This document shows, in pieces, positions 8,644-63,510 of a stretch of 64,000 nucleotides of DNA. The notes below the pieces were generated by a model, which was not told the origin of the DNA, made no database searches, and worked only from the letters and a program-made list of their open reading frames with translations. Source of the stretch: Minisyncoccia bacterium. GTDB taxonomy: Bacteria > Patescibacteriota > Minisyncoccia > UBA6257 > 2-01-FULL-56-20. Location: assembly GCA_049997875.1 (NCBI GenBank), contig JBEKRC010000004.1, forward strand, positions 8,928-72,927, read 5' to 3'. The translations under genes were made by a program, and so were the position numbers. The stretch's first letter is position 1. Each line of letters starts with the position of its first letter.

Positions 8644-9486
8644 TTAGCATCTGTAGGAATTTATCAACCTTTCCAATATTTCCTTTTTCTCCAAAGATTC
8701 TTTCCAAACACTGTTTGAACGTAATCCATTTATACAAACGCCGTCCGAAAAATTTATGACATCTCTAAATCTCAAAAGATCGGCTCTCCGTGAAATACAG
8801 AGTTCATAAAATCGCGCTTCCATCCGGCTCGCGATGCCGAGGTCGGCAAGCAATTCCTTCACTAACTGCAAAATTTCTAAAGAATGCTGGTATCCGCGGA
8901 CGATCCGTTTTCTTGGAGTAAACGTAACGTTGCCTTCGTCGTCATAAAAGGCTTTCAAAAATGCGGTCTTCTCCTCATAAGAACCGCCACGGATATAACT
9001 TAAAAGTTCTCTGACTTTCTGTCTCAAAAACGCTGCAATTTCAACATGATGATAGCTCACCCTCAACACGCCATCTGGCTTCCTGAGCAATTTATAATCA
9101 GAAACTCCCAGGACTGTATCCATAAGCGAGATGACGTTATTTACCAGTGTTCGGCTCCGATTGTTGTAAATAGATGAAACCCGCGAAATTTCTCCATCAA
9201 ACATAAAATGAGCCACCAAACCAACAAAGGCCGCATTCCATTCCAATGGCACCCGGTAAGAATACGGCTTTACAGATTTACCACGCCTCCCGTCGGTTAA
9301 TGTTTTCTGCTTGGCGCGATTGATGGCGAGGAGTCTTCCTTTAAGATAGTTGGACTTTGCTAAATTTTTTATGTGATAAAATGCGGTTGACTTGGGAATG
9401 TTCGTTTCGGTGATAATTTCACCCAAGGTGAAACCTTGCTGCCGAAGTAATTTTATTCTTTCAATGGTTTCAGCGCTCTGCTTCAT
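8644..9486 (-). CDS. LAGLIDADG-type homing-endonuclease-like protein with N-terminal HTH domain
   Basis: Two LAGLIDADG-like motifs (FVGLVAHFMFDGEIS and FLKAFYDDEGNV) and an N-terminal HTH (GFTLGEIITETNIPKSTAFYHIKNL). The ATG at 9486 is 1 nt from the tRNA-Lys 3' end; lower GC than the backbone. Confidence 0.55.
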   Translation of the reverse strand: MKQSAETIERIKLLRQQGFTLGEIITETNIPKSTAFYHIKNLAKSNYLKGRLLAINRAKQKTLTDGRRGKSVKPYSYRVPLEWNAAFVGLVAHFMFDGEISRVSSIYNNRSRTLVNNVISLMDTVLGVSDYKLLRKPDGVLRVSYHHVEIAAFLRQKVRELLSYIRGGSYEEKTAFLKAFYDDEGNVTFTPRKRIVRGYQHSLEILQLVKELLADLGIASRMEARFYELCISRRADLLRFRDVINFSDGVCINGLRSNSVWKESLEKKEILERLINSYRC

Positions 9487-9487
9487 G

Positions 9488-9560
9488 TGCCCCCACTAGG
9501 ACTCGAACCTAGGACCATCTCGTTAAAAGCGAGCTGCTCTGCCAACTGAGCTATGGGGGC
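9488..9560 (-). tRNA. tRNA-Lys (anticodon UUU)
   Basis: Hand-folded cloverleaf: acceptor GCCCCCA/TGGGGGC, D-arm GCTC-AGTTGGCA-GAGC, anticodon loop CTTTTAA, T-arm CTAGG-TTCGAGT-CCTAG, discriminator A; 73 nt; CCA not encoded. Confidence 0.85.
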
Positions 9561-10462: not shown

Positions 10463-11023
10463 TCAGCGCAACCAATACTCATATAAAATCACCAGCGAAA
10501 AAAGAAATACTAAAAACTCTGCAATTGCGTAAGGGTGAAATCTTAGGTAAATGTTTTTAATCCAATCTTTATCGCCGTAGTGCACTGAGAGACGCCGGAC
10601 ATCTTCCCCGCTCCATACGTAGAGTGTTTTTGCGGGTAGTTTGTTTCTTGAAATATCGTACTGATAGAAAAACGCATAGTAGTTTTGTGACAATGGATAG
10701 AACCACCGAACGCCCCATCCGAGCCCGATTGAATCATGAAGAAAATGCAAAAATGTCGTTATCGCAAATAGTGCGGCCCATCGGTAATCAAAAAAAGAAA
10801 TGATGATCGTTCCAATGGGAATGAATAACAGCGGATAATGAAACAAATCGCGATGTTCATGCGCCCTTGCGGTAGTCCCCTTTTTCAGTGTGAAGAGAAA
10901 ATCAAAGTCGGGCAGGAGGGAAAATAAAATGCCGCCTGCGAGAAAAATCGGCGTGAACGCGATTCCAAAAAATCGGCCTAAGAAAACTGATGCGAAAATG
11001 CCTACCCCTATGTCCAGCGGCAC
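10463..11023 (-). CDS. Membrane-bound metal-dependent hydrolase (YdjM/DUF457-like)
   Basis: Polytopic membrane protein with HEHRDLFHYP and FLHFLHDS histidine clusters characteristic of the family. Confidence 0.5.
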   Translation of the reverse strand: MPLDIGVGIFASVFLGRFFGIAFTPIFLAGGILFSLLPDFDFLFTLKKGTTARAHEHRDLFHYPLLFIPIGTIIISFFDYRWAALFAITTFLHFLHDSIGLGWGVRWFYPLSQNYYAFFYQYDISRNKLPAKTLYVWSGEDVRRLSVHYGDKDWIKNIYLRFHPYAIAEFLVFLFSLVILYEYWLR

Positions 11024-38861: not shown

Positions 38862-41282
38862 TTATACTTCCTTCTTTCTCTCCCCCACCGAATGACCGCC
38901 GAAGCGGCTGCGGAGCGCGGAGAGGATTCGACCCGTATAGCTCGGCGCTTTTCGGGAACGCATGCGGAATTTGAACGCATCTTCTATCGCCGGCAGTTTC
39001 ACGCGCCACTTGCGGCCGGTCTTTAGGGTCCATTCACCCTCGCCGGTCGCGGCGACCGTGCCAGATACCGCATGTAGCTCCTTGCCATAAATGCGGAACG
39101 CGTCTTCCATCCAGCCAACGAGGCGCGATTCAATGACGCTGCCACGGTTGTATACGCGCGCAATCTTCTCAAGATCAAACTTGAATGGCGATTTTTTCAT
39201 GAGCGCGAAACCTTCCGCCAAGGACTGCATCATGCCGTATTCAATGCCGTTGTGGACCATCTTTACGAAATGGCCTGCGCCCGCATCGCCGAAATACGCG
39301 TAGCCCAAGGGCACGGAGAGGTCGGCGAAGAGCGGCTCCAGATATTCAAATGTTTTGCGGTCGCCGCCGATCATGAGCGAGCCGCCGTAGCGCGCGCCGT
39401 GCGGGCCGCCCGAGAAGCCCACATCCACAAACCGAATGCCGCGCTTGCCGAGAAGCTTCGCCCGCCGCACGCTGTCCTCAAAGAACGAATTGCCGGCGTC
39501 TATCACGATGTCGCCTTTTTGGAGGTGCGTCACAATGCCATTCCTGCTCCGTCCCGCGCCGAAGAGAAATTCGTCCACTCCTTTTCCGGCGGTGATCATG
39601 AGCCAGATCACGCGCGGCGAATGTCTTCGCGGCACCGCGAGCTCCGCCGCGAGTTCTGCGAGAGAATACGCCGCCTCAAAACCTTCTCCCTCCAGCTGTT
39701 GCAAGGACTCCGGCGAGCGATTGGCTGCGATGACGCGCCATCCTTTATCGCGCAGCTGCCATGCCACGTTCGCACCCATCTTCCCGAGCCCGAAAATGCC
39801 TATTTCCTTCGGAAGCGCCGAGGTCCCATTTCTTTCCGCCGCGTCATCAAATGCCGCCGCTTCGGCGACAATCTTACGGCCGCCCGGCGCGTAGTGCCGC
39901 AGCGGGACCAAGTTCTTTTTCCACGCAATGATGAACGGGTCTATGAACTTCCACATCGCGGCGATCTCCTCGCTTGAGACAAAGAGCGTCTGGTCGCCCG
40001 CGATGCAGTCCAAAATCAGTTTTTCGTATTCCTCGGTATATTGAGCATGAAGAACGGTTTTCCGAAAATCAAAATTAAATGTCCGTTCTTCAAACTCAAA
40101 CTTGTGTCCCGGCTTTTTGGAATGAAACTTGATGGTGATCCCCTCGGTCGGTTCAAGGTGAATGAAAATGCGGTTATGATGATGTTCGTTCCCTATGCAA
40201 AGGCAGGGCTGTTCGTGGCGCAGCACAATCTCTATCTCTTTGATCGGCTCGCCGAGGCGCTTCCCGCTTTCCATGACGAGCGGCATTCCCTCCCACCGCG
40301 CGCCGGTGAGGAATCCTTTGATACGAAAGTACGTTTCGGTTCTTGAACGGGGAGAAACGCCGGGTACGGAACGGTAGCCGTCGTATTGCGCGCGGAACGA
40401 GTTCTTTGCGGCTTCGCGGGGCGTCTGAATGACGAGGCGCCTCAAAAGCTCCGCGCGGAGCGGACGGATCGCTTGGGCGTCGTACCGCGCGGGCCGTTCC
40501 ATGGCAACGAGCGCGAGCATCTGCAGAAGATGGTTCTGTCCCACATCTTGTAGAGCGCCCACGTGGTCGTAGAATGGGCCGCGTCCCTCGACGCCGATTT
40601 TCTCAAACAGGCGGATGTGCACGCGCGCTATCGTACGGCTCGTCCATTCGTTTTCAAAAAGATCGTTCGCGAACCGGAACATCAGAATATTCTGCAACAT
40701 CTCCTTCGCCAGATAATGGTCTATCCGATACACTTGTTCCTCCCGAAAGAGCTTTGTCAGTTGGGCATCAAGCGCCTTCGCACTCTTCTCATTGTTGCCG
40801 AACGGCTTTTCCACAATTACGCGCGTCCATCCCTCGTTCGGACCGCAGCCGTCGGTCAGATGGCTGCGGTGCAGGTGGGCAAGGATGAGCGAATAAAACT
40901 GCGGCGGGACCGAAAGATAAAAAAGTTTGTTCGCGCACATGCCCCACGCATCGTCAATATTTTTCAAAAGATCGTTGAGCGCCAGGTAGTCCTCCGGAGA
41001 ATCAAACGCCAACCGATGGTACGCGGCAAGGTCAAGGAACGATCGTACGGTTGCGGCGGGCGCGTGCGATGTCCTCTCTTTAAGAATGGTGCGGAGGTGC
41101 GTACGGAGATCGTCGTCGCCCCACGCGCGCCTTGAAACGCCTACGAGTTTGAACTTTGGCGGCAGCTGCTTTTTTGCATGCAAATTAAAAAGCGCCGGCA
41201 CGATCTTTTTCGCCATAAGGTCGCCCGTGGCGCCCAAGACCACGAGAATGGTAGGAATGGTTTGTTTCCGCTCATCTATCAT
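38862..41282 (-). CDS. zwf: Fusion protein: glucose-6-phosphate dehydrogenase (N-terminal ~480 aa) + 6-phosphogluconate dehydrogenase-like NAD(P)-binding enzyme (C-terminal ~300 aa)
   Basis: N-terminal GATGDLMAKKIVPALF and Zwf active-site segment RIDHYLAKE. The C-terminal half has the 6PGDH Rossmann GIFGLGKMGANVAWQL plus ...GDAGAGHFVKMVHNGIEYGMMQ; 806 aa. Confidence 0.8.
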   Translation of the reverse strand: MIDERKQTIPTILVVLGATGDLMAKKIVPALFNLHAKKQLPPKFKLVGVSRRAWGDDDLRTHLRTILKERTSHAPAATVRSFLDLAAYHRLAFDSPEDYLALNDLLKNIDDAWGMCANKLFYLSVPPQFYSLILAHLHRSHLTDGCGPNEGWTRVIVEKPFGNNEKSAKALDAQLTKLFREEQVYRIDHYLAKEMLQNILMFRFANDLFENEWTSRTIARVHIRLFEKIGVEGRGPFYDHVGALQDVGQNHLLQMLALVAMERPARYDAQAIRPLRAELLRRLVIQTPREAAKNSFRAQYDGYRSVPGVSPRSRTETYFRIKGFLTGARWEGMPLVMESGKRLGEPIKEIEIVLRHEQPCLCIGNEHHHNRIFIHLEPTEGITIKFHSKKPGHKFEFEERTFNFDFRKTVLHAQYTEEYEKLILDCIAGDQTLFVSSEEIAAMWKFIDPFIIAWKKNLVPLRHYAPGGRKIVAEAAAFDDAAERNGTSALPKEIGIFGLGKMGANVAWQLRDKGWRVIAANRSPESLQQLEGEGFEAAYSLAELAAELAVPRRHSPRVIWLMITAGKGVDEFLFGAGRSRNGIVTHLQKGDIVIDAGNSFFEDSVRRAKLLGKRGIRFVDVGFSGGPHGARYGGSLMIGGDRKTFEYLEPLFADLSVPLGYAYFGDAGAGHFVKMVHNGIEYGMMQSLAEGFALMKKSPFKFDLEKIARVYNRGSVIESRLVGWMEDAFRIYGKELHAVSGTVAATGEGEWTLKTGRKWRVKLPAIEDAFKFRMRSRKAPSYTGRILSALRSRFGGHSVGERKKEV

Positions 41283-43720: not shown

Positions 43721-45388
43721 ATGGAGCGGGAAACGCGGGCGTGTGAGGACTGCAAAAACCAGTTCGCAATTGAGCCGGAGGATTTTGATTTTTATAAGAA
43801 AATGGGGGCTCAACCTCCAAGCATCTGTCCGAACTGTCGCTTTAAATGGCGAGCGCTCTATCGCAACGAACGTACTTTGTATAACTCCAGGTGCGGTCTA
43901 TGCGGGAAAACCATCATCTCCGCGTATAATCCCCGATCACCATACACGGCGTACTGCACGAAGTGCTTTGATTCAGACAATTGGGACCGATTCTCGTTCA
44001 ACGTCGATTTCGATTTCAAAAAGCCATTCTTTGAGCAACTCGGAGAACTTTTCAGAAAAACACCAAAGCAAGCCCTCTACATCACCCACAGCCCCACGAA
44101 CGTAAACAGCGAGTACATCAACTACGCCGGGCCATATGAAAAAAACTGCTATCTCGTCTCCAACTCCGGCGAAGGAGAAGAGGTGCTCTACTCCCGTGGT
44201 ATGCGGCATTGTAAATATGCTTCGGACCTTTACTACGCAACGTTTTTGGAAGATTGCTACGAATGCATCAATGGCCATCATTCCTCGCGCGTGTATCACG
44301 GGCAAAACGTAAGCGGCAGCATTGACTGCGCCTATGTCGCGAATTGCAGCGGGTGCACCCACTGCTTCGGGTGCGTGAATTTACGCAATCAAAAATATCA
44401 CTTTTTCAACGAACAACTTTCCAGGGAAGAATACGAGAGGAAGGTGCGTGAGATCTTGGGGAGTTACTCAAAAATGCAAGAGGCCGAGCAACGCTTTGAG
44501 CAATTTGCACTACAATTTCCGCAACGCGAGAATCAAAATCTGAAATCGGTGAATTGCATCGGTGACTATCTCACTGAATCGAAAAATACGAAGTATTCGT
44601 TCGAAGACACGAACTGTGAAGATTGCAAGCATGCCTTTTTCAGCAAGAATATGAAGGACTCTTACGACACCACTGGCTACGGATACAGTAGCGAGCTATT
44701 GCTCTCCGTCGCGGCGGCGGGATACTCCAACCGCGTTATTGGATCGGCGCTCATCTCCGCCAGCCACGATATTGATTACTCACTCGCGCTCAATACCTGC
44801 AATAACTGCATCGGCTGCGACGGCCTCAAAAACGCGGAATTTTGTTTGTTGAACAAGAAATATCCAGAAGTGGAATATAAGCGCATCAGAGAACACATTA
44901 TTAAAGAATTGAAGGGAAAGAACAGTTATGGTCTCCCGTTGCCTCCGGAGATCGGTCTCTTCGCCTACAACGAAACGATTGGGCAAGACAATTTGCCAAT
45001 GACCAAGGAAGAAGCGCTCGCACAGGGACTTGGATGGCAGGACGACGTGCAAACGACAAAGGGAAAGGAAACTATGCCGCTCGAAAAGATTCCGGACCAT
45101 ATCCGTGACGTTTCCGAATCTATTATCAAAGAAATTCTTGCATGTGCGGAGTGCGGCAGAAATTACCGCATCATTCCGCAGGAGCTACTCCTCTATAAAC
45201 GGCTTATCATCCCAATACCGCGAAAATGTTTCAACTGCCGTCACATGGCGAGGATCAAGAAGCGGGGACCGTTTACCCTCTACGATCGTCGGTGTGGTCG
45301 GTGCGGAAAAGATATCAAAACAAACTTTGCGCCGGAGAGGCCCGAAATCGTCTATTGTGAGCAGTGTTATCAGGCAGAGGTGATATAA
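43721..45388 (+). CDS. Large cysteine-rich protein (~40 Cys) with a duplicated ~80-aa double-zinc-ribbon module at both termini and a Cys/His-rich core
   Basis: The N-terminal module (CEDC..FAIEPEDFDFYKKM..CPNCR..LYNSRCGLCGK..YCTKCF) is repeated at the C-terminus (CAEC..YRIIPQELLLYKRL..CFNCR..LYDRRCGRCGK..YCEQCY). The core has repeated C-x2-C-x-G-C-x2-L-x-N motifs (NCSGCTHCFGCVNLRN / CNNCIGCDGLKN); AT-rich islet; it is the only plus-strand gene in a minus-strand block. Confidence 0.55.
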   Translation: MERETRACEDCKNQFAIEPEDFDFYKKMGAQPPSICPNCRFKWRALYRNERTLYNSRCGLCGKTIISAYNPRSPYTAYCTKCFDSDNWDRFSFNVDFDFKKPFFEQLGELFRKTPKQALYITHSPTNVNSEYINYAGPYEKNCYLVSNSGEGEEVLYSRGMRHCKYASDLYYATFLEDCYECINGHHSSRVYHGQNVSGSIDCAYVANCSGCTHCFGCVNLRNQKYHFFNEQLSREEYERKVREILGSYSKMQEAEQRFEQFALQFPQRENQNLKSVNCIGDYLTESKNTKYSFEDTNCEDCKHAFFSKNMKDSYDTTGYGYSSELLLSVAAAGYSNRVIGSALISASHDIDYSLALNTCNNCIGCDGLKNAEFCLLNKKYPEVEYKRIREHIIKELKGKNSYGLPLPPEIGLFAYNETIGQDNLPMTKEEALAQGLGWQDDVQTTKGKETMPLEKIPDHIRDVSESIIKEILACAECGRNYRIIPQELLLYKRLIIPIPRKCFNCRHMARIKKRGPFTLYDRRCGRCGKDIKTNFAPERPEIVYCEQCYQAEVI

Positions 45389-57381: not shown

Positions 57382-58432
57382 CTATAACATTTCAAGCTCC
57401 GCTTCAATGAACAGGTCTAGGTCGCCCGCGAGCACTGCGTCCACTTTCGCCGTTTCCGCCTCCGTGCGGTGGTCCTTCACCATTTGGTAAGGGTTCAGAA
57501 CATACGAACGGATCTGGTTTCCCCACTCGGGCTTTACCTTCACGCGCAACGCGCCGATCTCGCTCACCTTTTCCTTCTCCATCAGATTAAAAAGCTTCGC
57601 CTTGAGGAGCTTGAGCGCATACGCGCGGTTCTGCGCCTGCGAGCGCTGCGCTTGCGAACTTACGGCGAGCCCGGTCGGGAGATGCACCACGCGCACTGCC
57701 GTTTCCACCTTGTTCACATTCTGTCCGCCCGGACCGCCCGAGCGATAGAATTCAAATTTAAGGTCTTTTTCCGGGATCTGCAGTTTTGATTCTTCAAGCG
57801 GCGGCAAATCCGGAATCACTTCCACGAGCGCGAACGACGTGTGTCGCAGCTTTTTAGGCGAAAACGGCGAAATACGCACAAGGCGGTGGACGCCGGATTC
57901 TTTCTTCAAATATCCGTAGGCGTAATCCCCTTTTATTTCCACTGTCCGCGAGCGGATGTTGTCGTCAATCACCCGCAGCTTCCATCCGCGCCGCTTCGCG
58001 TAACTTTCATACATAACGCCCAGCATCCGCGCCCAGTCCTCTGCATCCTCGCCGCCCGCGCCGGGATAAACCGCGAGCACTGCCGCCTGTATGTCATAGC
58101 GCCCGACAAACAGCTGCTTCAGTTCAAACTCCTTGAATTTCTTTTTCAGTTCGTAAAATTTCGCTTCGTCAAAACTCTCGCCGCCTGCCGCGGCCATGAG
58201 TGCCGCGATGCCACTTTCAATTTCGCGGTACTGTACCACGAGATCATTCAGAACTCCCAGCTCTTTGATTGCTTCATCTGCCGCTGCGCGGTTTTTCCAA
58301 AACGCCCCGTCGGCCATCTCGGCCGTGAGTTCCTTTATTCTCTTTTCACTTGCGGCCAAGTCAAAGCCGCCCGCCTAACCGGCGGGCATCGGTCGCAAGC
58401 TCATCTAATTCTTTTCTTGTGTTTGTATCCAT
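57382..58432 (-). CDS. prfB: Peptide chain release factor 2, with the programmed +1 ribosomal frameshift (CTT TGA C at 58360..58366)
   Basis: Frame 0 (ATG 58432) encodes [23 protein letters not shown] and stops at an in-frame TGA within CTTTGAC; the +1 frame continues [12 protein letters not shown]... through SPF (RISPFSPKK) and GGQ ([11 protein letters not shown]). An SD-like GGCGGGCGG precedes the shift site. Confidence 0.9.
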
Positions 58433-58690: not shown

Positions 58691-58939
58691 ATGAAAAAGG
58701 ACATTCACCCGACGTATTTCCCCCAAGCCCATGTCGTCTGCGCATGCGGCAACACGTTCACCGTGGGCGCAACGAAGGCCGAGATCAAAGTTGAGATCTG
58801 TTCCCATTGCCACCCGTTCTACACGGGCGAAGAGAAGCTGATAGACACCGCTGGCCGCGTGGAGAAGTTCAAGACGCGCCGCGCGAAAGCCGTTCGCAAG
58901 CCGAAACCGAAGAAGGTGCGGGCTAAAAAAACGCGTTAA
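58691..58939 (+). CDS. rpmE: 50S ribosomal protein L31 (type A, zinc-binding)
   Basis: [26 protein letters not shown]...[11 protein letters not shown]; the ATG at 58691 is preferred, because the track ORF start lies antisense to the tRNA. Confidence 0.85.
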
Positions 58940-59768: not shown

Positions 59769-60167
59769 TCACTTTTTTGCGAGCATTTCCCGCACCCTTG
59801 CCACAATCACATTCAGGTCCGCGGTCTTATCAATGTAATCCTCCATGCCCAATCCCTTCGCGAGCCTATCGCGGTCGCCCTGGGTCGCGGGCCATGGATC
59901 TTTCAGGTTGCTCAGAAACGCGATTTTTATGTCTTTTGTCTCCGGATTCTGTTTGATCGCAAGCGCCGCATCGGTACCGGTCTCCCCGCCGGGCATGCGG
60001 ACGTCCATAAGAACAAGGTCGGGGTGCAATTTCGCCGCGGCATCAACTCCCTCTTTGGCATTGTAGGCCACCACGGGATCAAAGCCGGATGCCCCAAGCT
60101 TCACGGACATAATTTCCAGAAGTTCGTGCTCGTCGTCAACAATGAGGACAAGCGGTTTTTCCCTCAT
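59769..60167 (-). CDS. Single-domain response regulator (CheY-like receiver)
   Basis: LIVDDE, phospho-acceptor Asp in LVLMDVRMP, conserved Lys; 132 aa. Confidence 0.85.
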   Translation of the reverse strand: MREKPLVLIVDDEHELLEIMSVKLGASGFDPVVAYNAKEGVDAAAKLHPDLVLMDVRMPGGETGTDAALAIKQNPETKDIKIAFLSNLKDPWPATQGDRDRLAKGLGMEDYIDKTADLNVIVARVREMLAKK

Positions 60168-60553
60168 GAAAGCAGTGCCGTTATCTTTTCCGCAAGCACG
60201 TCAAGGTCGTCGGTCTTTTTGAGGTACCCCTGCGCGCCGAATTCTTCGGAGAATTTCCTGTTGATGTCCTGCATGTCCAAGCGCGGGTCGCCCAGGCTCG
60301 TAAGAAATGCCACCTTGATGTCTTTCAATGCCGGGTCTTCCTTCATTTTGAGCACCGCCGTCGCGCCGTCCATCACCGGCATCTTGACATCCATAAGGAC
60401 AAGGTCGGGCTTTGCTTTCGCCATCTTAAGGAGCGCCGCTTGTCCGTCCTCCGCGGTATCCACGCGATAGCCCATCGCCAAAAGTTTGGTTTGGAAAATC
60501 TCGCGGAAATCCGGCTCGTCGTCAACAATCAGTATGAATGGTTGCCCTGCCAT
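60164..60553 (-). CDS. Single-domain response regulator (CheY-like receiver), tandem paralog
   Basis: LIVDDEPDFREI, LVLMDVKMP; 129 aa; overlaps the upstream receiver gene by 4 nt. Confidence 0.85.
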   Translation of the reverse strand: MAGQPFILIVDDEPDFREIFQTKLLAMGYRVDTAEDGQAALLKMAKAKPDLVLMDVKMPVMDGATAVLKMKEDPALKDIKVAFLTSLGDPRLDMQDINRKFSEEFGAQGYLKKTDDLDVLAEKITALLS

Positions 60554-60583
60554 TGATGTACTATTATTATATCATACGAAGCG

Positions 60584-61318
60584 ATGACAACGGATAAAAT
60601 AATTCTTGAAATACGGGCTGGCGCGGGCGGTGACGAAGCCGCCATTTTCGCGGGCGATCTCGCGCGCATGTACCAGCGCTACGCGATGAGGCGCAGGTGG
60701 GTGTTTTCCGTACTTGATTCCAGTGCGACCTCGCTCCAAGGATTCAAATCGCTCGTGGCCGAAGTGCAAGGCGCGGGATGCTACGAGGCGCTTCGGAACG
60801 AATCCGGCGTGCACCGCGTGCAGCGAATCCCGGCAACGGAAAAATCGGGGCGCGTGCACACCTCCACTGCCTCGGTGGCCGTGTTACCAATCGTGGAAGC
60901 GCGCGAGGTAAGCATCGCACCTGGCGACATTGAGGCGACATTCTCTCGCGCCGGCGGTCCGGGAGGGCAGAACGTGAACAAGGTAGAAACGGCCGTACGG
61001 ATCCTCCATAAACCGACCGGCATTGTCGTTTCCTCGCGCGAGGAACGCTCCCAGCACGCGAACCGCGAAAAAGCGATGGATGTCCTCCGCGCGAAACTGT
61101 ACGAAATGGAACAGCGCAAGGCAGTGGGATCCGTGACTGACCTCCGCCGCGAACAGGTCGGCAGCGCCGACCGCTCGGAAAAGATCCGCACCTACAATTT
61201 TCCCGATGACCGCATCACCGACCATCGCATTGGGAAAAAATGGCACAATATTGAAAAGATCATGGACGGCGACATGGACCCGATCGTGAAGGCGTTCACA
61301 AAAAATACCACGAATTAA
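60584..61318 (+). CDS. prfA: Class-I release factor of the RF1 type (PxT + GGQ) lacking the N-terminal domain 1
   Basis: PAT tripeptide ([14 protein letters not shown]) and GGQ ([17 protein letters not shown]) are present; the protein starts at the domain-2 region ([20 protein letters not shown]). 244 aa versus ~360 for RF1; there is no upstream coding space on this strand. Confidence 0.7.
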
Positions 61319-61336: not shown

Positions 61337-61364
61337 TTGACAAGGCGTGTTGCAAAGCTATACT
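61337..61364 (+). promoter_or_regulatory. Near-consensus sigma70 promoter TTGACA-N16-TATACT
   Basis: Seen directly in the sequence; there is no protein-coding gene downstream on the plus strand. Confidence 0.5.
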
Positions 61365-61370
61365 GAATAA

Positions 61371-61498
61371 AATCCATTATCTCATGGGGCAGAAAGCCAG
61401 AAAGACGGCTTTGCTGCGGGGTGGGATTTCTCAATGGAATCCCATTACGATGGAGGAATCGCGCCGCCCTCCCTGCTCCATATGATAGTGGACTTTTT
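61371..61498 (+). ncRNA. Candidate small structured RNA transcribed from the consensus promoter; function unknown
   Basis: Nested hairpins predicted by eye: GCAGAAAGCC/GGCTTTGCTGC, TGGGATT-loop-AATCCCA, GGAGG-loop-CCTCC, ATGGAG..CTCCAT. It ends with a TTTTT run at 61494..61498 and lies antisense to the 3' end of ORF 61445..61906. Confidence 0.35.
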
Positions 61499-61906
61499 GA
61501 TATATGAGGGTCTGGTAGGAAAAAATGTGACGCAGAAGGGAACTTCTCCATAGTCCTTTACGCAAATCTCAAGCGGGCACGCCAAAAATTTCCTTTCGCG
61601 GAACTTTCTGAAAAATATAAAATCGCCCCGGTCGCCGAATCTCGGCAATGAAATATAATCGGGTTTTTGAAAAACTGCAGAAAGGTCACTGAGATAATTT
61701 ATTGTGAACTCCGGTCGCTGATCATACGCGTGTTTCAAGCTCCAGGTTGAAGTGTATACATTTGGCGAGGAGAATTTACTGTGCAAGCGGAGAAAACTGT
61801 ATACCTCCATTGGAATACGACTGATCAGTACGTCGTATAAAGCTATGGGAGCTTTCGGCGGGGTACCCAAAATCTGCTCCGCGAAAATACGTTTATATTT
61901 CTCCAT
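61445..61906 (-). CDS. Hypothetical protein (153 aa), AT-rich
   Basis: Non-repetitive ORF with no motifs. A palindromic hairpin GAGCTACC-ccat-GGTAGCTC lies directly upstream of its ATG; an alternative-frame ORF (61315..61551) overlaps its 3' end, so a frameshifted or longer gene is possible. Confidence 0.35.
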   Translation of the reverse strand: MEKYKRIFAEQILGTPPKAPIALYDVLISRIPMEVYSFLRLHSKFSSPNVYTSTWSLKHAYDQRPEFTINYLSDLSAVFQKPDYISLPRFGDRGDFIFFRKFRERKFLACPLEICVKDYGEVPFCVTFFPTRPSYIKKSTIIWSREGGAIPPS

Positions 61907-61933: not shown

Positions 61934-62443
61934 TTAAAAAAATCTTAAATTATCTTCCCTAATCTCGTACCTCGCAATCGTTTTCCCGTCGTCGCTAAAA
62001 TAGAATTTTCCCGCAATCAATTTCCCTTGCAATACCTCGGGCAGCCAAAGCCGGTCGTCCGGCCACATGGCATCAAACGGGATCTCGCTGAACTTGAACC
62101 ACTGCGGCCGCATTTCCTCAGACTCGGTCGGTTCGCCCACCCATCGCTTCACAAAAAAGATGTGTACGCGCTGGTTCCAGTCAGGTTTATGTTCAAAAAA
62201 GAAATCCAGAACGGCGTACTTTTTGAGGTCGCCCATAGAAATCTTTAGGCCAATTTCTTCTTCCAATTCCCGTACCGCAGCAGCTTCAATGGACTCCCCT
62301 TCCTTCGGTTTTCCGCCAATGCCATTCCAACGGCCAGCGCCGAACCCGCGCTTTTTCATGCCGAGAAGTATGGAAACCTCCGTAAGCGGCAGGCAAAGGG
62401 TCGTGTCCAGCATATCTCGGGACGTAAAATGTTCCACGCTCAC
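61934..62443 (-). CDS. NUDIX hydrolase (MutT-like)
   Basis: Nudix box GGKPKEGESIEAAAVRELEEEIG. Confidence 0.85.
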   Translation of the reverse strand: MSVEHFTSRDMLDTTLCLPLTEVSILLGMKKRGFGAGRWNGIGGKPKEGESIEAAAVRELEEEIGLKISMGDLKKYAVLDFFFEHKPDWNQRVHIFFVKRWVGEPTESEEMRPQWFKFSEIPFDAMWPDDRLWLPEVLQGKLIAGKFYFSDDGKTIARYEIREDNLRFF

Positions 62444-63510
62444 ACAAGGATCTTCGCGGTCTGTTTAATGAGCGACAACGCCACCGGCGCGGGCAACAAA
62501 CTATACGAGGGCACACCGTCAGCATCAACGATCCAAGGAGTTTCAATGATCTTGATCTTCTTCGTTTTTTCGTCTCTCTCGTACCCGTACACGGGCGTGA
62601 CCTCATAGTCGTCCACAAAATTGGCCGCCTTATCCACCGGCACCGAGTTTCTTAACAACACTTTGGGAACCCCGGTGAGCGTGAAGAGCTGCCGGAATAT
62701 TTTCTCGTCGGCCGTGAGGCGGGCGCGGATCGGTTCAATCCCGAGTTCATCGCCCTCCTTCGGCAACATCCGCGCTCCGTGGCACGACGGAGTATCGCAC
62801 ATCAGATAAAACACCTTTTTTTCTTCGTCGTAGCCGATCTCTTTCGTGGGAGCCAATTTCGTATTGCGGGGAACCTTGCAGATGGGGCACACCACGCGCG
62901 TTTTGATACGCTCGTCAATGACGGCGTTCGGAACGTCAATAAACACAAAGAAGTCCGGCTCGCCATGATACCCCAAAAGTTCCCTCAAAAAAATTGAATA
63001 ATGGATTTGATCAAGCCCGCGCGGGAACCCGTCAATGAAGATCGCCTGCCGTGGACGCTTGCTCACCTCGTATTTCAAAAGAGCGATGATAAGCTCGGTG
63101 GATACGAGCGTGGACTGGCTCCGTCCTTCAATCAAGCCGTCTATTTCCTTCAATGAGTGGAAACCGCGATAATGTTTCTCCAAGAACATAGAAAGTTCTT
63201 TTTTCTTTTTGGGATCCGAAAGTCCCGCGTGCACGTCGCGGACGATATCCCCCACCGCCACGTGGCCGACATGGGTGCTGCCCACTGCTTCCATAAAAAG
63301 CTTGGAGTAAGTCCCTTTCCCGGAATTCTTTTTTCCCAAAAGATATGCCACGAACGCTTTCCCGCTTTCAAGATATTTCCTTATCGCCGCAATTTCCTTT
63401 CCCGCTTTCAGCGAAAAATACTCTCGGCGATCGTCCAAGTCGTTCAAGTTGAATTTTTTGGTGACGTCCTGAACTTTGGTTTTGAAAACGGGGAATTCCA
63501 GATCTTTCAT
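62440..63510 (-). CDS. adk: Adenylate-kinase-family protein, long variant with Zn-lid and N- and C-terminal extensions
   Basis: P-loop GKKNSGKGT, FIDGFPR NMP-binding motif, Cys4 lid (CPICK...CDTPSC); 356 aa versus ~215 for canonical Adk. Confidence 0.55.
   Translation of the reverse strand: MKDLEFPVFKTKVQDVTKKFNLNDLDDRREYFSLKAGKEIAAIRKYLESGKAFVAYLLGKKNSGKGTYSKLFMEAVGSTHVGHVAVGDIVRDVHAGLSDPKKKKELSMFLEKHYRGFHSLKEIDGLIEGRSQSTLVSTELIIALLKYEVSKRPRQAIFIDGFPRGLDQIHYSIFLRELLGYHGEPDFFVFIDVPNAVIDERIKTRVVCPICKVPRNTKLAPTKEIGYDEEKKVFYLMCDTPSCHGARMLPKEGDELGIEPIRARLTADEKIFRQLFTLTGVPKVLLRNSVPVDKAANFVDDYEVTPVYGYERDEKTKKIKIIETPWIVDADGVPSYSLLPAPVALSLIKQTAKILV

Follow-up and report, generated by a model that had tools for sequence, protein, structure and literature searches.

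What is encoded by a release factor gene that begins where domain 2 should begin? Textbooks present domain 1 as the part by which class-I release factors engage L11 and RF3. The gene that raises the question, here called RF1t (truncated RF1, gene prfA), lies within a stretch of 64,000 nucleotides from a Minisyncoccia bacterium (contig JBEKRC010000004.1, positions 8,928 to 72,927), which we refer to as the window. An earlier note on this DNA had offered three readings of it: a genuinely minimised RF1, a PrfH-like paralog or a rescue-type factor. We conclude that RF1t is probably the housekeeping prfA, an RF1 ortholog by position as well as by sequence, whose domain 1 was lost by deletion in an ancestor of a Parcubacteria/Paceibacteria clade to which genomes labelled Jorgensenbacteria and Liptonbacteria belong. 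It is thus the first of the three readings that agrees with the profile scores, the decoding residues, the purifying selection, the position of the gene at the rpmE-prfA site and the clade-wide short form.

The gene and its diagnostic features, in window coordinates, are:

60584..61318, plus strand: truncated prfA (RF1t), ATG start, TAA stop, 244 amino acids; RF1 domains 2, 3 and 4, without domain 1
60830..60838, plus strand: PAT tripeptide (the PxT 'anticodon' of RF1), codons 83-85, equivalent to Thermus P184-V185-T186
60962..60970, plus strand: GGQ catalytic motif, codons 127-129, equivalent to Thermus G228-G229-Q230
60554..60583, no strand: divergent intergenic region of 30 nt between the RF1t ATG and the start of a response-regulator gene

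That the open reading frame (ORF) carries both PAT and GGQ and begins at domain 2, as first read from the letters, is confirmed by the ORF itself and by the Pfam and NCBIfam profiles. The Pfam PCRF profile is matched only at positions 101-194 of 194 and the RF-1 domain over positions 4-116 of 116. Against the NCBIfam RF1 equivalog NF001859, RF1t scored 364 bits (profile positions 105-341 of 347), and against the RF1 model TIGR00019 it scored 354 bits, compared with 240 bits for the RF2 model. Chains in the PDB gave the same ranking, with 238-263 bits for RF1, about 158 for RF2 and 50 for PrfH. Neither curated equivalog cutoff (400 bits for NF001859 and 423 bits for TIGR00019) is reached; the shortfall corresponds to the absent profile positions 1-104, and because the score lies under the curated cutoff, the NCBI label for the protein is only 'PCRF domain-containing protein'.

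The alignment with T. thermophilus RF1 covers residues 107-340 with zero indels, and adding 101 to a position in RF1t gives the Thermus number. RF1t (N-terminus MTTDK...) begins 5 residues ahead of Thermus position 107 and about five residues ahead of the first strand of domain 2, with 0-5 residues preceding that domain. All of the residues that read UAA and UAG are kept: G116 and E119 at the tip of helix alpha5, Q181, the PxT at 184-186, H193 and T194 in Thermus numbering, which correspond to G15, E18, Q80, P83-A84-T85 and the last two residues of V91-H92-T93 in RF1t, where V91 is a conservative change from Thermus I192. In 37 clade members these decoding residues and the GGQ are invariant, and only the x of PxT varies. 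An AlphaFold2 (AF2) model of RF1t, used for fold class only given its low confidence (predicted local distance difference test, pLDDT, of 64 from a shallow alignment with all sequences >79% identical), had structural matches exclusively to class-I release factors, the best being compact free RF1 (template modelling score, TM, 0.72-0.75). Judged by its sequence, RF1t is an RF1 made of domains 2/4 plus 3, and neither a PrfH nor an ArfB.

A search over 5.8 billion proteins, from which we considered the best 120 clusters, returned homologs that were 80-100% identical to RF1t and in every case 231-286 amino acids long; where the clusters were named, the labels were Minisyncoccia, Paceibacterota or Patescibacteria. 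The start lies 7-9 residues ahead of the ExRxGxGG motif in 113 of these 120 clusters, and the few longer ones resemble alternative start calls. The short start is also retained in GTDB genomes with differing upstream sequence or neighbours. The identical 244-residue protein was found on 19 contigs; four of these, from Logan, JGI and ENA samples that are independent of one another, share their gene neighbours. Pairwise ratios of nonsynonymous to synonymous substitution rates (dN/dS) against relatives were 0.07-0.10, indicating that RF1t is under strong purifying selection.

The region upstream of RF1t has no coding capacity for a domain 1, as the earlier note had maintained. An in-frame TGA at 60554..60556 lies 9 codons 5' of the ATG, the divergent gene is 30 nt away, and a tblastn search with 43 RF1 domain-1 queries found no domain-1-like coding in the 64-kb window (best E 0.12). 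The response-regulator gene, which had been described as ending 31 nt away, actually starts at 60553 and is divergent, with a gap of 30 nt; the argument is unaffected. The same type of search in the 3-10 kb flanks of 14 short-RF1 loci found no domain-1-like coding (best E 0.07 or worse), with the exception of a partial domain inside the RF1 gene of one locus (L037), although the sensitivity of tblastn for a stand-alone domain 1 is limited because this domain diverges quickly. Two -10-like boxes are found within 60554..60583, TATTAT with its last base at 60570 and TATCAT with its last base at 60575, and -10-like boxes likewise lie 10-35 nt ahead of the ATG of the short RF1 genes at loci L005-L016. 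No Shine-Dalgarno-like sequence was found before RF1t or before these short genes. This arrangement suggests that the short RF1 genes are expressed from mRNAs that are leaderless or have a very short leader; for RF1t, the suspected leaderless transcript would begin near 60582-60584.

The surroundings of the gene bear on whether it is prfA itself. The neighbours between RF1t and the nearest ribosomal protein gene are:

60164..60553, minus strand: response-regulator gene, 129 amino acids, divergent from RF1t (Pfam Response_reg in identical loci)
59769..60167, minus strand: second response-regulator gene, 132 amino acids
58973..59722, minus strand: histidine kinase, HisKA plus HATPase_c, 249 amino acids as called in identical loci
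58691..58939, plus strand: rpmE (ribosomal protein L31; Pfam Ribosomal_L31, E 5.5e-29)

We sampled synteny in 80 GTDB loci from Candidate Phyla Radiation (CPR) and non-CPR bacteria, ranging from Cyanobacteria to Parcubacteria. In most of them, rpmE lies immediately 5' of prfA in the same orientation. The short genes of L012 and L015 directly follow rpmE, as do the partially truncated RF1 genes of L017, L023 and L037. The window differs in this respect, as do its close relatives L005, L006 and L008: there, the minus-strand module of one histidine kinase and two response regulators is inserted between rpmE and the short gene. No second RF1-like gene was present within 10 kb in the window locus or in three relatives. 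Because the short genes occupy the rpmE-prfA position, with no other RF1-like gene within 10 kb and no domain-1-like coding nearby, we read RF1t as the prfA ortholog by position, shortened at its original site.

The RF1 lengths across the GTDB loci of our sample, in which trees were distance-based and used about 236 columns, fall into three ranges:

Non-CPR bacteria: 352-372 amino acids
Most Parcubacteria/Paceibacteria: 312-329 amino acids, with a short domain 1 of about 72-83 residues
Fully truncated clade: 239-250 amino acids

The fully truncated clade includes Jorgensenbacteria- and Liptonbacteria-labelled genomes and the complete 829-kb chromosome OY970354.1, and it is monophyletic in the distance tree (86% bootstrap). 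Other complete or nearly complete genomes with the short gene are ENA ERZ25039512 contig_54889 (888 kb) and ERZ25039472 contig_20113 (726 kb). Shortening is also seen elsewhere. One Nomurabacteria RF1 of 292 amino acids retains part of domain 1. Another, of 270 amino acids, represents an independent loss, because it is nested among proteins of 320-327 amino acids at 100% support; an internal deletion is suggested by its tail of 21 residues ('MDWQEWKK...'), which is similar to the way its full-length relatives begin ('M..LDELKKNHN...'). The Amesbacteria protein KKU58406.1 (Microgenomates group) has 256 amino acids, and another Patescibacterium encodes a 269-residue 'PCRF domain-containing protein'. 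Erosion of RF1 domain 1 is therefore recurrent in CPR, and it is complete in the clade of the window. Certain substitutions were specific to the clade (E to T at 119, S to K at 219 and L to F at 238), but these come from small samples uncorrected for phylogeny and are not relied on; a higher net charge of domains 2-4 in truncated than in full-length proteins (+6.2 vs +2.4) has the same limits and is merely suggestive.

Profile scores below cutoff are not confined to the truncated proteins. The domain-1-bearing Parcubacteria RF1 of L019 scored 379 bits against the cutoff of 400 and aligned from profile position 40, and normal Parcubacteria RF1s of 312-329 amino acids (loci L018-L080) align to the RF1 profile only from about that position. 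Curated cutoffs thus under-call release factors across CPR, for RF2 as well as RF1 (363 vs 370 bits for the RF2 of the window).

The truncation is restricted to RF1. The second class-I factor encoded in the window is represented by:

57382..58432, minus strand: prfB (RF2), full length, 349 amino acids after the +1 frameshift, with SPF and GGQ and a TAG end at 57382
58366..58360, minus strand: RF2 frameshift site CTT TGA C, codons 23/24, preceded by AGGCGGGCGG

From the ATG at 58432, 23 frame-0 codons precede CTT TGA C. The protein matches the prfB model at profile positions 2-352 of 353 with 362.8 bits, slightly under the cutoff of 370, so that the description of a full-length RF2 with its CTT-TGA-C frameshift stands. 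Domain 1 is kept by RF2 and lost by RF1t. We consider the chances to be somewhat better than even that in a whole clade of Patescibacteria the sole RF1 is a natural 'mini-RF1' lacking domain 1, with independent loss or erosion in other CPR (Nomurabacteria, 270 and 292 amino acids; Amesbacteria, 256 amino acids) and with RF2 keeping the domain.

A release factor of reduced size raises the concern, voiced in the earlier note, of how UAG is read in this lineage. In a curated set of 60 genes of the window, 29 end in TAA, 17 in TGA and 14 in TAG, the last including prfB, dnaJ, dnaB, atpD, atpE, ychF and ftsX. In a relative whose RF1t is 93% identical, TAG codons of the window align at identical positions with TGA (ftsX) and TAA (atpE). 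UGA is also read as a stop, as the RF2 frameshift site shows. The genetic code is standard and TAG is an ordinary stop; UAG is indeed in regular use here, and its reading is an ordinary case. The standard code, together with the fact that nearly three quarters of the genes end in a codon readable by RF1, argues that RF1t is active.

How could a release factor without domain 1 function? Domains 2/4 of RF1t would read UAA and UAG in the A site through the canonical RF1 residues, the protein would open from a compact form on binding, as canonical RF1 does, and domain 3 would place GGQ in the peptidyl-transferase centre, leading to hydrolysis of peptidyl-tRNA. The contacts of RF1 to L11 and RF3 are made by helices alpha2/alpha3 of domain 1, which meet the N-terminal domain of L11 and domain 3 of RF3 (PMC3677378). 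Without domain 1, RF1t should form no bridge to the L11 N-terminal domain and provide no RF3 stimulation, and RF3-dependent recycling would be impossible by the known route; dissociation would have to be spontaneous or to proceed via ribosome dynamics and recycling factors. The RF3 gene, prfC, is missing from small genomes (PMC1586002), and no genes for prmC, RF3 or L11 were found in the 64-kb window.

This mechanism is plausible because E. coli RF1 minus domain 1 keeps release activity in vitro, codon specificity and function in vivo, and cannot stimulate RF3 (Mora et al. 2003, Mol Microbiol 50:1467, as summarised in PMC1586002). Domain 1 is more important to RF2 than to RF1 (PMC1586002), which fits a loss from RF1 only in this lineage. 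A further constraint on RF2 may be that the coding region of its domain 1 houses the autoregulatory frameshift. We infer that RF1t is active on the ribosome, that it is independent of RF3 and that it is the sole RF1, the last two from synteny, conservation and precedent.

Some points weigh against reading RF1t as the housekeeping RF1 of this lineage. The genome may measure 0.8-0.9 Mb, of which the window covers 64 kb, so that another prfA of full length could lie in the remainder. In distance trees, the short clade is not nested cleanly within the other Parcubacteria RF1s. Finally, E. coli RF1 was reported to be inactive on ribosomes lacking L11 (a reviewer comment in PMC1586002), and loss of the L11-contacting domain is therefore not obviously neutral; dependence on L11 would have to be absent or bypassed in this lineage.

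The first two of these points would be accommodated if RF1t were an accessory truncated paralog with a specialised or regulatory role and the full-length housekeeping prfA lay elsewhere in the genome, since the data cover the window and not the whole genome, and since the short clade stands apart from other Parcubacteria RF1s in neighbour-joining trees. We consider this unlikely. The gene occupies the usual place of prfA after rpmE, and three relatives have no further RF1 within 10 kb. Its conservation is extreme (80-93% identity, dN/dS about 0.08), no decoding residue has been lost, and related lineages show one gene at intermediate stages of N-terminal erosion, of 327, 292 and 270 amino acids. 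Moreover, as a matter of general knowledge, reduced genomes rarely retain duplicates.

Still less likely is a split gene, in which domain 1 would be made as a separate polypeptide elsewhere and join RF1t in trans; the tblastn search with 43 domain-1 queries was empty in the 64-kb window and, apart from the partial domain inside the L037 gene, in the flanks of the 14 short-RF1 loci.

We likewise give very little credence to a PrfH-like or other rescue factor of the ArfB/ICT1 type that would act on damaged or stalled ribosomes and not at stop codons. PrfH does resemble RF1t in lacking domain 1 (PMC1586002, PMC6514570). However, RF1t scored 81.8 bits against the PrfH model TIGR03072 (cutoff 166.65) and 53.6 bits, over just 36 residues, against the ArfB model (cutoff 100), compared with 364 bits for RF1, and among PDB chains PrfH reached 50 bits compared with 263 for RF1. 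The PxT loop of RF1 and a complete codon-recognition superdomain, domains 2/4, are retained without indels. No rtcB was found within 10 kb in the window or its relatives, and the upstream neighbour is a divergent response regulator. Whereas PrfH is sporadic and horizontally transferred, the RF1t gene is clade-wide and syntenic with rpmE. The second and third readings of the earlier note are thereby set aside.

An artefact of any kind, be it a misassembly, a sequencing gap at 60554..60583, a pseudogene remnant or a miscalled start, was rejected and has next to no probability, given a 64-kb window with zero ambiguous bases, the in-frame stop 9 codons upstream, an identical locus in 19 contigs from independent assemblies, the common start in 113 of the best 120 clusters and in GTDB genomes with other upstream neighbours, and a dN/dS of about 0.08.

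Several further features were seen around the locus. Directly after the RF1t stop is a sigma-70-like promoter, TTGACA-16-TATACT, at 61337..61364 on the plus strand, which matches the consensus at 11 of 12 positions. The approximately 125 nt downstream of it (to 61498, plus strand) are predicted to form a multi-branch fold that ends in a U-run, with a minimum free energy of -58.5 kcal/mol (z = -5.5), and none of 200 shuffled sequences was equally stable. This region, 61337..61498, is a candidate for an unannotated small RNA. It had no Rfam match at the gathering score or at E<=1, and the other loci fetched showed no homolog of the element. An ORF of 153 amino acids without a Pfam match (61445..61906, minus strand), which is absent from L005, the relative whose RF1t is 93% identical, extends into the element with its 3' end. 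Where the window has the candidate small RNA, L005 carries another kind of structured element: a long palindrome with perfect ends, TGTTTTCATGAGGG...CCCTCATGAAAACA, within the spacer between the RF1t stop and a NUDIX gene (10733..10850).

Elsewhere in the window, other ORFs are of unusual composition:

38862..41282, minus strand: a single ORF of 806 amino acids, G6PD_N plus G6PD_C fused to NAD_binding_2 and a partial 6PGD C-terminal domain
62440..63510, minus strand: a protein of 356 amino acids with a weak partial adenylate-kinase match (residues 132-232) and a Cys-rich insert, CPICK...CDTPSC
43721..45388, plus strand: an ORF of 555 amino acids, very cysteine-rich, with many CxxC pairs
8644..9486, minus strand: a free-standing LAGLIDADG-like homing-endonuclease ORF of 280 amino acids, adjoining tRNA-Lys (9487..9560)

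The first joins a glucose-6-phosphate dehydrogenase to a 6-phosphogluconate-dehydrogenase-like module, that is, two consecutive oxidative pentose-phosphate steps. The adenylate-kinase-like protein is unusually long and adjoins aspS in relatives too. For the 555-residue ORF the sole Pfam signal was a C-terminal treble-clef zinc finger, at 26.4 bits vs a gathering threshold of 27 bits, and an ORF similar to the homing endonuclease (LAGLIDADG_3) is present in the relative L006.

Sequences of the RF1t clade have been public since 2015 under the labels 'peptide chain release factor 1' or 'PCRF domain-containing protein'. To our knowledge, engineered E. coli proteins had until now been the only evidence that domain 1 is dispensable. 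In the literature on truncated RF1, on CPR release factors and on the contacts of RF1 domain 1 with L11 and RF3, we found no description of a natural housekeeping RF1 that lacks domain 1, and neither a review of release-factor evolution (PMC6514570) nor a study of CPR ribosomes (PMC9297842) mentions one. The mechanism itself will not surprise termination specialists because of the truncation work in E. coli. What is new and worth reporting here is a loss of domain 1 that is natural, clade-wide, recurrent and restricted to RF1: evolution appears to have made the same deletion as the engineers did, on RF1 and not on RF2.

If this holds, termination at UAA and UAG requires neither the RF1-L11 bridge nor coupling to RF3, and RF1 and RF2 depend unequally on domain 1 in vivo. 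The loss may also co-vary with other simplifications of the CPR ribosome, such as the absence of RF3 or an altered L11/L7-L12 stalk. Streamlining of CPR translation already includes the loss of uL1, bL9 and uL30 (PMC9297842), and RF1t would add a translation factor to these streamlined components. The clade offers natural sequences with which to probe the contribution of domain 1 to binding kinetics, to RF3-driven recycling and to L11 dependence. There is a practical consequence as well, because proteins that fall below the RF1 cutoffs and carry the label 'PCRF domain-containing protein' may lead automated surveys to score such genomes as lacking prfA and to mis-infer stop-codon reassignment.

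Among known systems, canonical RF1 (NF001859/TIGR00019; T. thermophilus RF1 in 4V63 and E. coli RF1) is collinear with RF1t over domains 2-4 at 49-55% identity and shares with it PxT, GGQ, the helix alpha5 G/E pair, Q181/H193/T194 and the rpmE-prfA position, but it has a domain 1 of about 100 residues in Thermus and E. coli and about 84 in T. maritima, where RF1t has none. ArfB, ICT1 and C12orf65 have the GGQ domain in common with RF1t (54 bits, 36 residues); they have no domains 2/4 and end in a basic tail at the C-terminus, in contrast to the complete decoding superdomain of RF1t. PrfH (RFH; TIGR03072) is closer in outline, combining a codon-recognition-like domain with GGQ and no domain 1, but unlike RF1t it has diverged decoding loops, forms an operon with rtcB, spreads sporadically by horizontal transfer and rescues damaged ribosomes. 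The RF1s with a short domain 1 (T. maritima 1RQ0, 342 amino acids, and most Parcubacteria, 312-329 amino acids) follow the same trend towards a reduced N-terminal domain, yet they keep a helical domain 1 of about 72-84 residues, and domain 2 of the T. maritima protein runs from residue 85. The nearest counterpart is the engineered, N-terminally truncated E. coli RF1, which, as described in PMC1586002, consists like RF1t of domains 2-4 only. That protein is a laboratory construct with measured activity, whereas RF1t is a natural form shared across its clade.

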